Assembly (NCBI RefSeq): GCF_050920415.1
Contig: NZ_CP169309.1
Strand: one strand, 5' to 3'
Origin: Escherichia coli
Lineage (GTDB): Bacteria; Pseudomonadota; Gammaproteobacteria; Enterobacterales; Enterobacteriaceae
Length of the DNA stretch: 64,000 nt
The translations under genes were made by a program, and so were the position numbers. Below are positions 48,029 to 55,296 of the stretch, piece after piece. The notes under the pieces are model-generated. The model did no database searches, was not told where the DNA came from, and saw nothing but the letters and a program-made list of their open reading frames with translations. How positions within the stretch are numbered: position 1 is the stretch's first letter; every line of letters begins with the position of its first letter.

Positions 48029-49396
48029 TTAATAAAATAGCGTGATAGTGGCAATCATATTCACCACGAAACCGACTGACATGGGGATCGCTGTCCGCTT
48101 CACTACCGCAAAAGGCGAAACGCCTGCAATTCCTGACGTAACGACCACCACCGCAGTAATCGGCGAAACAGCGCGCGCTAGCGTCGTGGCAAAATGCATC
48201 GGCATAATCATTACAACCGCTGGTACATGTAGTCCGGCTGCGATATTCGGAATAAGACTGGCAAATGACATAAATGGCGCATTGCCTGAGCCCATCACAA
48301 TGGCACAAATGGCAATGACCAGCGCCATAATAATCATCACGCCAATACCGCCCAGACCAGAATGCTCCGCCCCCCTGATAACCGCATCGACAGTGCCAAT
48401 CGTCGTTAAGCCTTTCGCAAATATTTCACCCGCGACCACCAGCGTTACCACGTTGGCAAACTGCGTACCCATGCCGTCAAAAAACGCCTGCACATTGTCC
48501 ATTGTTTCGCGCAAATTATGCTTGCGGAAAAACTCAACAAACATCGTCACCGTCAAACTCAGTAACATCACCACCACCAGATGCAGTTCTGACTGCATCA
48601 GTCCAGCGTGGGCGAGGAACAGCGAGCCGAGCATCAGGATTAACGGCATCACCGGTAAAATGGCGTAATAGAGCGGCGGGACATTATCGAGAGCTTTTTG
48701 CTCCGCCTGCTCGTGATTGATATTTTTATCTTTTTTGTCAAAAGCGCGTTGCACGAAAAAGTGAGAGATCGCTACCGAGATAATGACGCAAGAGGCGACC
48801 GGAAGCTGGTAGTGGAAGAAGTAAGTGGCAATTTTCATTCCTGCCACCTGGGCCGCAAAAATAGAGTTCGTTTCCAGAATCCCCCACTCAATGGACATCG
48901 TGGTTGCGATAACTGCCACCGCAGAGAGTCGACTTACTCCCAGACTCACTAGTGTTGGAAATAAGGTGACCATCAGCAACATACCCAGACCGGAGGCGCT
49001 GGTAATAAACTGCGCCATGATTTGGCCGATAACGTAAGTTGCCGACAGAATAAGATACGGCGAGCGAATGAGTTTTAACGGGCGGCTTAACAAGCTCACC
49101 ATCGCCCGACTGGCTCCTATGCGCTCCATGTAGCGGGCATACCCGCCCACAGCCATAATCGACAACCCTAACCCGGCAATGCGGTTGGACAGCATGCGCA
49201 GGATTTCATTATAAATATCGACGATCAAGTAGCCGCTGCTTTTGGCGGGATCGAGTACTCCACCGAACCCTAACCAGACACCGCACATCATCAGGAAGAT
49301 ACCTGCGGCAGCCAGCACCACTTGAGGTTTGTAGTTTTTCAGGATCAAATAGCCCATCGTCATTAATACGATGACAGATATAATTATGCCGAACAT
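48029..49396 (-). CDS. dcuD: DcuC-family C4-dicarboxylate transporter
   Basis: ~455-aa polytopic membrane protein from [28 protein letters not shown]; track ORF is extended 6 codons upstream. Confidence 0.9.
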
Positions 49397-49775
49397 TGTT
49401 GAACTCCGTGTCAAAAGAAAACGGTCAATCCCATAAACGGCAGATTGAAAACAGTGATGTTATATTTTTTGCAAGGCTATTTATGGTGTTGGTGTCGTAT
49501 TTTTTAATTCTGGATGAGGCGATTTTTCATTATAAAATATGCATTTATGATTATTTTGTAAGAACATATTCGTAATATTCATAATGCTTGTGAATAGTCT
49601 TATGAATAATTCATTCAGGATGTTTTTATCGGCGTTACACTAATTTTCGCAATAGTTAATTATTACGTTAATTATGATAATAATGAGACACAAAGAGAAA
49701 AAACCGCCATTTCCCCCTACTTTCAATCCTGTGATAGGATGTCACTGATGATGTTAATCACACTGACCTTACAGA

Positions 49776-50567
49776 ATGGGCCTTATGAACGCATTTGATT
49801 CGCAAACCGAAGATTCTTCACCTGCAATTGGTCGCAACTTGCGCAGCCGCCCGCTGGCGCGTAAAAAACTCTCCGAAATGGTGGAAGAAGAGCTGGAACA
49901 GATGATCCGCCGTCGTGAATTTGGCGAAGGTGAACAATTACCGTCTGAACGCGAACTGATGGCGTTCTTTAACGTCGGGCGTCCTTCGGTGCGTGAAGCG
50001 CTGGCAGCGTTAAAACGTAAAGGTCTGGTGCAAATAAACAACGGCGAACGCGCTCGCGTCTCACGTCCTTCTGCGGACACCATCATCGGCGAGCTTTCCG
50101 GCATGGCGAAAGATTTCCTTTCTCATCCTGGCGGGATTGCCCATTTCGAACAATTACGTCTGTTCTTTGAATCCAGCCTGGTGCGCTATGCGGCTGAACA
50201 TGCCACCGATGAGCAAATCGATTTGCTGGCAAAAGCACTGGAAATCAACAGTCAGTCGCTTGATAACAACGCGGCATTCATTCGTTCAGACGTTGATTTC
50301 CACCGCGTGCTGGCGGAGATCCCCGGTAACCCAATCTTTATGGCGATCCACGTTGCCCTGCTCGACTGGCTGATCGCCGCACGTCCAACCGTGGCTGATC
50401 AGGCTCTGCACGAGCATAACAACGTTAGCTATCAACAGCATATTGCGATCGTTGATGCGATCCGCCGCCACGATCCCGATGAAGCCGATCGCGCGTTGCA
50501 ATCGCATCTCAACAGCGTCTCTGCTACCTGGCACGCCTTCGGTCAGACCACCAACAAAAAGAAATAA
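49776..50567 (+). CDS. nanR: GntR/FadR-family repressor of sialic-acid catabolism
   Basis: 263 aa with N-terminal GntR HTH ([36 protein letters not shown]). Confidence 0.95.
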
Positions 50568-50630
50568 TGCCACTTTAGTGAAGCAGATCGCATTATAAGC
50601 TTTCTGTATGGGGTGTTGCTTAATTGATCT

Positions 50631-50653
50631 GGTATAACAGGTATAAAGGTATA
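50631..50653 (+). promoter_or_regulatory. NanR operator: three direct GGTATA repeats
   Basis: GGTATAACAGGTATAAAGGTATA immediately upstream of nanA; matches the known NanR site architecture. Confidence 0.85.
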
Positions 50654-50688
50654 TCGTTTATCAGACAAGCATCACTTCAGAGGTATTT

Positions 50689-51582
50689 ATGGCAACGAAT
50701 TTACGTGGCGTAATGGCCGCACTCCTGACTCCTTTTGATCAACAACAAGCACTGGATAAAGCGAGTCTGCGTCGCCTGGTTCAGTTCAATATTCAGCAGG
50801 GCATCGACGGTTTATACGTGGGTGGTTCTACCGGCGAAGCCTTTGTACAAAGCCTTTCCGAGCGTGAACAGGTACTGGAAATCGTCGCCGAAGAGGCGAA
50901 AGGCAAGATTAAACTCATCGCTCATGTAGGTTGCGTCAGCACTGCTGAAAGCCAACAGCTTGCGTCTTCAGCCAAACGTTATGGCTTCGATGCCGTCTCC
51001 GCCGTCACGCCGTTCTACTACCCTTTCAGCTTTGAAGAACACTGCGATCACTATCGGGCAATTATTGATTCGGCGGATGGGTTGCCGATGGTGGTGTACA
51101 ACATTCCGGCGTTAAGCGGCGTTAAACTGACCCTGGATCAGATTAACACTCTGGTTACGTTGCCTGGTGTCGGCGCGCTGAAACAGACCTCTGGCGATCT
51201 CTATCAGATGGAGCAGATCCGTCGTGAACATCCGGATCTGGTGCTCTATAACGGTTACGACGAAATCTTTGCTTCTGGTTTGTTGGCGGGCGCTGATGGT
51301 GGTATCGGCAGTACTTACAACATTATGGGCTGGCGTTATCAGGGTATCGTGAAGGCGCTGAAAGAAGGCGATATCCAGACCGCGCAGAAGCTGCAAACCG
51401 AATGTAATAAAGTCATTGATTTACTGATCAAAACGGGCGTATTCCGCGGCCTGAAAACGGTCCTGCACTATATGGATGTCGTTTCTGTGCCGCTGTGCCG
51501 CAAACCGTTTGGTCCGGTCGATGAAAAATATCTGCCAGAACTGAAGGCGCTAGCCCAGCAGTTGATGCAAGAGCGCGGGTGA
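50689..51582 (+). CDS. nanA: N-acetylneuraminate lyase
   Basis: 297 aa, [52 protein letters not shown]... Confidence 0.98.
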
Positions 51583-51690
51583 GTTGTTTCCCCTCGCTCG
51601 CCCCTACCGGGTGAGGGGAAATAAACGCATCTGTACCCTACAATTTTTATACCAAAGCGTGTGGGCATCGCCCACCGCGGGAGACTCACA

Positions 51691-53181
51691 ATGAGTACTA
51701 CAACCCAGAATATCCCGTGGTATCGCCATCTCAACCGCGCACAATGGCGCGCATTTTCCGCTGCCTGGTTGGGATATCTGCTTGACGGTTTTGATTTCGT
51801 TTTAATCGCCCTGGTACTCACCGAAGTACAAGGTGAATTCGGGCTGACGACGGTACAGGCGGCAAGTCTGATCTCCGCAGCCTTTATCTCTCGCTGGTTC
51901 GGCGGCCTGATGCTTGGCGCTATGGGCGACCGCTACGGGCGTCGTCTGGCAATGGTTACCAGTATCGTTCTCTTCTCGGCCGGGACGCTGGCCTGCGGCT
52001 TTGCGCCAGGCTACATCACCATGTTTATTGCTCGTCTGGTCATCGGCATGGGGATGGCGGGTGAATACGGTTCCAGCGCCACCTATGTCATTGAAAGCTG
52101 GCCAAAACATCTGCGTAACAAAGCCAGTGGTTTTCTGATTTCAGGCTTCTCGGTGGGTGCCGTCGTTGCCGCTCAGGTCTACAGCCTGGTGGTTCCGGTC
52201 TGGGGCTGGCGTGCATTGTTTTTTATCGGCATCTTACCAATCATCTTTGCTCTCTGGCTGCGTAAAAACATCCCGGAAGCGGAAGACTGGAAAGAGAAAC
52301 ACGCAGGTAAAGCACCAGTACGCACAATGGTGGATATTCTCTACCGTGGTGAACATCGTATCGCCAATATCGTGATGACACTGGCGGCGGCCACTGCGCT
52401 GTGGTTCTGCTTCGCCGGTAACCTGCAAAATGCCGCAATCGTCGCTGTACTCGGGCTGTTATGCGCCGCAATCTTTATCAGCTTTATGGTACAGAGTACG
52501 GGCAAACGCTGGCCAACGGGCGTAATGCTGATGGTGGTCGTGTTGTTTGCTTTCCTCTACTCATGGCCGATTCAGGCGCTGCTGCCAACGTATCTTAAAA
52601 CTGAACTTGCTTATAACCCGCATACTGTCGCCAATGTGCTGTTCTTTAGTGGCTTTGGTGCGGCGGTGGGGTGCTGCGTCGGTGGCTTCCTCGGTGACTG
52701 GCTGGGAACCCGCAAAGCGTACGTTTGCAGTCTGCTGGCCTCACAGCTGCTGATTATTCCGGTATTTGCGATTGGTGGCGCAAACGTCTGGGTGCTCGGT
52801 TTGTTACTGTTCTTCCAGCAAATGCTTGGACAAGGGATCGCCGGGATCTTACCGAAACTGATTGGCGGTTATTTCGATACCGACCAGCGTGCAGCGGGGC
52901 TGGGCTTTACCTACAACGTTGGCGCATTGGGCGGCGCACTGGCCCCAATCATCGGCGCGTTGATCGCTCAACGTCTGGATCTGGGTACTGCGCTGGCATC
53001 GCTTTCGTTTAGCCTGACGTTCGTGGTGATCCTGCTGATTGGGCTGGATATGCCTTCTCGCGTTCAGCGTTGGTTGCGCCCGGAAGCGTTGCGTACTCAT
53101 GACGCTATCGACGGCAAACCATTTAGCGGTGCCGTACCGTTTGGCAGCGCTAAAAACGATTTAGTCAAAACCAAAAGTTAA
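51691..53181 (+). CDS. nanT: sialic acid MFS transporter
   Basis: 496 aa from [47 protein letters not shown]; track ORF is extended upstream. Confidence 0.97.
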
Positions 53182-53227
53182 TCCTGTTGCCCGGTCCTGG
53201 ACCGGGCCTTTTGCTAAGGGAAGATGT

Positions 53228-53913
53228 ATGTCGTTACTTGCACAACTGGATCAAAAAATCGCTGCTAACGGTGGCCTGATTGTCTCCTGCCAGCCGGTTC
53301 CGGACAGCCCGCTCGATAAACCGGAAATCGTCGCTGCTATGGCATTAGCGGCAGAGCAGGCGGGCGCGGTTGCCATTCGCATTGAAGGTGTGGCAAATCT
53401 ACAAGCCACGCGTGCGGTGGTGAGCGTGCCGATTATCGGGATTGTGAAGCGCGATCTGGAGGATTCTCCGGTACGCATCACGGCCTATATTGAAGATGTT
53501 GATGCACTGGCGCAGGCGGGTGCGGATATCATCGCTATTGATGGCACCGATCGCCCGCGCCCGGTTCCAGTTGAAACACTGCTGGCGCGTATTCACCATC
53601 ACGGTTTACTGGCGATGACCGACTGTTCAACGCCGGAAGACGGCCTGGCTTGCCAAAAGCTGGGAGCCGAAATTATTGGTACTACGCTTTCTGGCTATAC
53701 CACGCCTGAAACGCCAGAAGAGCCAGACCTGGCACTGGTGAAAACATTAAGCGACGCCGGATGTCGGGTGATTGCCGAAGGGCGTTACAACTCGCCTGCT
53801 CAGGCGGCGGATGCGATGCGACACGGTGCATGGGCGGTAACGGTCGGTTCTGCTATCACGCGTCTTGAACACATTTGTCAGTGGTACAACACAGCGATGA
53901 AAAAGGCGGTGCT

Positions 53914-53917
<4 letters not shown>
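53228..53917 (+). CDS. nanE: N-acetylmannosamine-6-phosphate 2-epimerase
   Basis: 229 aa, [54 protein letters not shown]... Confidence 0.97.
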
Positions 53918-55250
<1,333 letters not shown>

Positions 55251-55267: not shown

Positions 55268-55296
55268 AGATTCTGCAGACACTGTCTGCAGAATTC
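55268..55296. repeat. perfect 11-bp-arm palindrome ATTCTGCAGAC-ACT-GTCTGCAGAAT between convergent nanQ and yhcG
   Basis: Read directly; same family as the three palindromes inside yhcG (core CAGAC-N3-GTCTG). Confidence 0.8.

Follow-up and report, generated by a model that had tools for sequence, protein, structure and literature searches.

The 64-kb stretch of Escherichia coli DNA that was analysed (the window) carries a nan locus, in which the repressor gene nanR is followed by nanA, nanT, nanE, nanK and nanQ on the same strand. The features considered below were as follows:

49776-50567, plus strand: nanR, GntR/FadR-family repressor of 263 aa (NCBIfam NF003011, 408.9 bits against a cut-off of 260)
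50577-50592, plus strand: CRP-like site AGTGA-N6-TCGCA, a putative activator site read from the sequence, 86% conserved in ten genera
50628-50651, plus strand: conserved block TCTGGTATAACAGGTATAAAGGTA, with 99% mean column conservation in ten genera (E. coli included)
50631-50653, plus strand: NanR operator, GGTATAACAGGTATAAAGGTATA, made of three direct GGTATA hexamers (50631-50636, 50640-50645 and 50648-50653) with the spacers ACA and AA
50633-50638, plus strand: candidate -10 hexamer TATAAC within the first repeat, proposed from the CRP geometry
50680-50683, plus strand: Shine-Dalgarno sequence GAGG of nanA, 5 nt before the ATG, with three of the four bases invariant and one 90% conserved in ten genera
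50689-51582, plus strand: nanA, N-acetylneuraminate lyase of 297 aa (TIGR00683, 570.5 bits against a cut-off of 382; 1 aa difference from K-12)
51691-53181, plus strand: nanT, sialate:H+ symporter of 496 aa (NF003024, 948 bits; K-12 length, 2 aa differences)
53228-53917, plus strand: nanE, ManNAc-6-P 2-epimerase of 229 aa (NF002231, 340 bits; 1 aa difference from K-12)
53914-54789, plus strand: nanK, N-acetylmannosamine kinase of 291 aa (NF047821, 509 bits; 12 aa differences from K-12, no stops)
54786-55250, plus strand: nanQ (yhcH), N-acetylneuraminate anomerase of 154 aa (NF040884, 236.6 bits; 3 aa differences from K-12)

All the nan genes presented the length of their K-12 counterparts, a proper start and stop codon and no internal stop, with 1 to 12 amino acid substitutions, and their products passed the NCBIfam cut-offs. 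This bears out the claim of an earlier note on this DNA that nanR and nanATEK-yhcH are intact, yhcH being the gene named nanQ in the NC_000913.3 annotation. The locus is bordered by dcuD, placed upstream on the minus strand, and by yhcG downstream, and the gene order is that of K-12 MG1655. Considering the intact operator, repressor and operon, it is reasonable to suppose that this nan locus would be functional and repressible.

NanR aligned over residues 1-263 to 6ON4 and was identical at 262 of 263 positions to the protein of the PDB entries 6ON4, 6WFQ and 6WG7. The substitution T207A was the sole difference, also relative to K-12, and residues 1-32, which make up the N-terminal extension, were identical. 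There is no mention of residue 207 in the structural paper on NanR (PMC8012715), and the T207A protein would be expected to behave like the K-12 repressor.

Two other spacers of the locus contained inverted sequences. The nanA-nanT spacer (window 51583-51690), identical to K-12 at 107 of 108 nt, presented a GC-rich hairpin, CCCCTCGCTCGCCCCTACCGGGTGAGGGG, and the nanQ-yhcG spacer, identical at 59 of 59 nt, a perfect palindrome, TTCTGCAGACA-C-TGTCTGCAGAA, at 55271-55293. The former is probably an internal attenuator or a REP-like element, and the latter probably a bidirectional terminator.

In the nanR-nanA spacer, the GGTATA hexamers started at 50631, 50640 and 50648, with start-to-start distances of 9 and then 8 nt. 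The nanA ATG was found at 50689, leaving exactly 35 nt (50654-50688) after the last repeat base, and the triple repeat at 50631-50653, first described as lying about 35 bp upstream of nanA, had thus been placed exactly. Single GGTATA hexamers were not enriched in the window, where 22 were counted; the expectation was 14.2 +/- 4.4, and a count of 22 was reached by 7 of 100 shuffles. The chance expectation for the three-repeat arrangement was derived from dinucleotide-preserving shuffles, and GGTATAN3GGTATAN2GGTATA, of which 0.01 occurrences were expected, had its sole match in the 64 kb at this site, even when up to three mismatches were allowed. The triple repeat is therefore real and well above chance. 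An Rfam scan of 50300-51000 matched no family, providing no evidence for an RNA element in this segment.

An E. coli-type NanR operator is defined as at least two, and canonically three, direct GGTATA hexamers spaced by 2-3 nt (PMC3658417, PMC8012715), and it was K-12 that served to define the (GGTATA)3 operator and to characterise its structure (PMC8012715, PMC3658417). It was observed that the whole nanR-nanA intergenic region, of 121 bp, was identical to that of K-12 MG1655 at 121 of 121 positions, so that the match to the known three-repeat operator, already proposed for this sequence, extends to the entire spacer. Repeats, location, K-12 identity, a cognate NanR and conservation, which are the properties of such an operator that sequence can reveal, were all found at this site.

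The identity of this spacer was accompanied by a considerable divergence of the sequences around it. Relative to K-12, nanR differed at 26 of 792 nt (3.3%; 9.5% at third-codon positions), nanA at 51 of 894 nt (5.7%; 15.8% at third-codon positions), and the nan coding genes altogether (window 49776-55250) diverged by 3.3-6.5% in nucleotides, with nanK differing at 57 of 876 nt and 12 amino acids. The dcuD-nanR spacer, taken as a control, showed 30 mismatches (7.9%) and 2 gap columns in 379 nt. At this rate, the 121-nt nanR-nanA spacer would be predicted to hold about 9.6 changes, and the occurrence of none indicates a strong constraint. Among complete E. coli genomes, a 501-bp probe across the site (50400-50900) matched 5409 of 5426, every time at nanR/nanA, with an identity of at least 99% over the 501 bp in only 478 of the 5409. 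Of the 5402 genomes matched by a 44-mer centred on the operator, 5194 carried it with 100% identity. As judged from these comparisons, the strain harbors a minority nan allele, yet its regulatory spacer is identical to that of K-12.

Two rare E. coli variants of the site were inspected. One of them had an additional T downstream of the operator, and in the other, strain PSJ-07 (NZ_AP027619.1; L003 141-172), a 9-bp unit, GGTATAACA, was duplicated, generating four GGTATA hexamers, together with a G-to-A change upstream (window 50610). In a megablast search with the PSJ-07 sequence, genomes with three repeats give two overlapping pieces that are joined, and the results are uninformative on the frequency of the four-repeat allele.

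Conservation was also evaluated beyond the species. Homologues of NanR obtained by protein search provided loci from Salmonella enterica, Citrobacter amalonaticus, Klebsiella oxytoca, Edwardsiella tarda, Cronobacter turicensis, Serratia rubidaea, Hafnia alvei and Atlantibacter hermannii, and an Enterobacter MAG was reached by the pattern scan. In every one of these nine other genera, nanR was followed by nanA and nanT. In the ten-genus alignment of the nanR-nanA spacer, hexamers 1 and 2 and the spacer ACA were invariant, the spacer AA was 95% conserved, and the TCT preceding the hexamers was invariant or nearly so, while conservation was 68% in the stretch from the CRP-like site to the operator and 52% in the 5' leader (50654-50679). 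In five of the nine other genera (loci L125-L131), the third hexamer (window 50648-50653) was degenerate, and it read GGTAGG in Salmonella and Serratia, GGTATG in Citrobacter, GGTACA in Klebsiella and GGCATG in Edwardsiella. By this alignment, the conserved unit is wider than the hexamers and effectively comprises about 2.5 repeats, and the operator with its spacers is among the most conserved non-coding bases of the nan locus. Such invariance or constraint within and between genera points to strong purifying selection on the operator. The third hexamer is dispensable in several genera, and its degeneracy there fits the published high-affinity binding of NanR to two repeats. The earlier note held that nothing in the sequence could refute the operator; that view was too narrow, since comparative sequence could do so by a loss of conservation or by the absence of nanR, and both comparisons, once run, supported the operator.

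A difference in gene neighbourhood was noticed in the same loci. In Salmonella, Citrobacter, Klebsiella, Cronobacter and Serratia (L125, L126, L127, L129 and L131), sspA-sspB lay directly upstream of nanR, whereas in E. coli this place is taken by dcuD and an AT-rich spacer of 379 bp (window 48029-49775), which suggests an insertion or rearrangement at the dcuD-nanR junction.

The way in which NanR reads this operator has been described in K-12. Three NanR dimers bind (GGTATA)3 cooperatively, with Neu5Ac as the inducer (Horne 2021, PMC8012715). A lone repeat is poorly bound, two repeats are bound with similar affinity in only two complexes, and binding weakens when the spacers are made six nucleotides longer (PMC8012715). 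Each dimer is bound asymmetrically, and the cooperativity is given by an extension of 32 residues at the N terminus (PMC8012715). Moreover, genomic SELEX placed NanR among the single-target regulators, with nanATEK/nanR as its target (PMC8249747). Since the site, the spacer and all but one NanR residue are those of K-12, these published results transfer directly to the present strain. It is nearly certain that the repeat found at 50631-50653 serves as operator for the nanATEK-yhcH (nanQ) operon, bound by NanR and inducible by Neu5Ac. Following the stoichiometry and cooperativity reported in the literature, NanR dimers would load cooperatively on the three hexamers in the absence of sialic acid, one dimer per hexamer. 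The bound repressor would then occlude a core promoter that, as we infer from the sequence, overlaps the operator at -10/+1 and would otherwise be activated by cAMP-CRP from the site about 50 bp upstream. N-acetylneuraminate, as in the published induction, would bind NanR and weaken its contact with DNA, derepressing the operon.

The participation of CRP is consistent with a published account of the nan operon, in which CRP is the activator and NanR the repressor (PMC12562284). Over the ten genera, the half-site bases TGA and GATC.CA of the CRP-like site were invariant, and its distance to the operator was fixed at 52-53 nt. With the centre of this site at 50584.5 and the class I spacing of about -61.5, the start of transcription would fall close to 50645-50646, with TATAAC as the -10 hexamer. 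By the same geometry, NanR would span about -18 to +8, excluding RNA polymerase. This arrangement is in line with the NanR footprint of about 30 bp, over the promoter region, that the abstract of Kalivoda 2003 is said to report. A scan of 50450-50800 for sigma-70 and terminator consensus sequences gave no site, the lack of a sigma-70 match being as expected for an activator-dependent promoter, and a literature search for a mapped nanA start site returned no usable coordinate.

From this context, it could be argued that the block is conserved mainly as a core promoter, comprising -10-like TATAAC/TATAAA sequences and the start region, for the benefit of RNA polymerase rather than NanR. Each GGTATAA(C/A) unit matches TATAAT at 5 of 6 positions, the spacers show the same invariance as the hexamers, and the CRP-like site lies at a fixed distance. 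The invariant spacer bases could stem from a role in the promoter just as well as from contacts with NanR. However, a promoter needs one -10 hexamer and not three phased copies, and all three promoters under NanR control carry the three-repeat module. In addition, EMSA, ultracentrifugation and cryo-EM demonstrated that NanR is specific for the repeats and that the number of complexes tracks the number of repeats (PMC8012715). Conservation for RNA polymerase in place of NanR is therefore very improbable; a promoter role fails as the sole explanation. As an overlapping function it is likely, is compatible with the NanR operator and may account for the invariance of the spacers. A more speculative extension, possible though rather doubtful, is that the working unit, instead of three equivalent hexamers, is the composite TCTGGTATAACAGGTATAAAGGTA, of about 24 bp, whose spacers would be under the same constraint as the hexamers because it doubles as the -10/+1 core promoter, and that the number of good hexamers acts as a lineage-specific dial for NanR cooperativity and repression tightness. 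In this regard, E. coli has three hexamers and PSJ-07 four, and two hexamers with a degenerate third were found in Salmonella, Citrobacter, Klebsiella, Edwardsiella and Serratia.

Sequences resembling the operator were also found away from nan genes. A scan of contigs for GGTATAN{2,3}GGTATAN{2,3}GGTATA returned, among the matches listed, mostly microsatellites of 8-9 nt (Bacteroidota MAGs, Pseudoalteromonas and Shewanella) and one true operator orthologue (L015). Tandem arrays such as (GGTATAACT)10 and (GGTATAGAA)n fit the operator pattern but correspond to microsatellites, and look-alike arrays were placed at L005 9135-9215 (Pseudoalteromonas sp. TB64), at L014 431-490 (Shewanella sp.) and at many Bacteroidota MAG loci. 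The Pseudoalteromonas (GGTATAACT)10 array, which encodes (GIT)n, was considered as an expanded operator and rejected, as it is found in a transposase-remnant frame (…WTFNNERPNIGITGIT…) away from nan genes. Owing to these look-alike microsatellites, searches for NanR operators beyond Enterobacterales that rely on the pattern alone are confounded.

These arrays raise the question of whether the E. coli repeat itself might have arisen by chance or slippage, as a short tandem repeat devoid of any regulatory role. Tandem Repeats Finder indeed reported the operator as a period-8 array of 2.7 copies, longer GGTATANN(N) arrays exist without nan context in Pseudoalteromonas (L005, inside the transposase remnant) and Shewanella (L014), and one E. 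coli strain displays the duplication of a 9-bp unit. Nevertheless, only 0.01 such arrangements would be expected by chance, the repeat is invariant over ten genera while its flanks diverge, no change relative to K-12 was seen in 121 nt despite the 8% divergence of the adjoining spacer, and direct binding data have been published (PMC8012715), which leaves a microsatellite origin with hardly any probability. It is just as hard to sustain that the site serves another regulator, such as NagC or a NarL-type heptamer reader, since the likeness of the GGTATA motif to the NarL consensus TACYYMT noted in a phylogenetic-footprinting paper (PMC13058942) and the action of NagC in the related nanC-fimB region (PMC3173223) are opposed by the company of nanR and nan genes that the site keeps throughout the ten genera examined, by the SELEX listing of NanR as single-target for nanATEK/nanR (PMC8249747) and by structures of NanR on operator DNA (PMC8012715).

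The operator of NanR described here is that of K-12 nanA in another E. coli strain and is, as such, already known. The analysis confirms in this strain a standard, apparently functional, sialic-acid-inducible nan locus, which matters for gut colonisation and for Neu5Ac biosensors built on NanR. The analysis brings no new mechanism, and its modest gain is comparative, with three small additions: spacers conserved like the hexamers, a third hexamer that, E. coli and a few other genera apart, is degenerate, and a natural four-repeat allele.

Regarding known systems, the closest is the K-12 nanA (nanATEK-yhcH) operator, with which the 23-mer, the 121-bp spacer and the flanking gene order are all identical. 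The site itself presents no difference, and the strain departs from K-12 in its coding genes, diverged by 3.3-6.5%, and in NanR T207A. In K-12, nanX (yjhB) is preceded by an identical 23-mer, and nanC by a near copy, GGTATAACAGGTATAAAGGTGCA, with two mismatches and GGTGCA as the third hexamer (L004 6625-6647 and 42921-42943, respectively; neither lies within the window). The nanA, nanX-nanY (yjhBC) and nanCMS promoters share a module composed of a CRP-like TGTGA motif, TTGATCT and then GGTATAACAGGTATAAAGGT, and the TGTGA-N6 motif lies at an equivalent distance from the operator in nanX and nanC. The nanX and nanC operators lie farther from their start codons than that of nanA, about 412 and 419 nt upstream instead of 35 nt. 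The presence of this module at three promoters agrees with the published sialoregulon, in which NanR controls three operons (PMC3658417, PMC8012715). In addition, only some 110 nt separate the K-12 nanX operator from the end of an IS4 element (at L004 6516).

The nanR-nanA operators of other Enterobacterales have the first two hexamers and the spacers in common with this site and are placed alike with respect to the CRP-like site and nanA. The E. coli third hexamer is perfect, unlike that of five of the nine other genera. Regulators also called NanR but of the C. perfringens type are not GntR proteins; they belong to the RpiR family and have unrelated binding sites. The Clostridium perfringens protein has the same name and the same role in the control of sialic acid catabolism (PMC4509764). 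FadR and typical GntR/FadR regulators are, like NanR, winged helix-turn-helix dimers of the same superfamily (PMC8012715), but the systems compared with NanR in that paper employ two sites or DNA looping, whereas NanR employs three close direct hexamers (PMC8012715).
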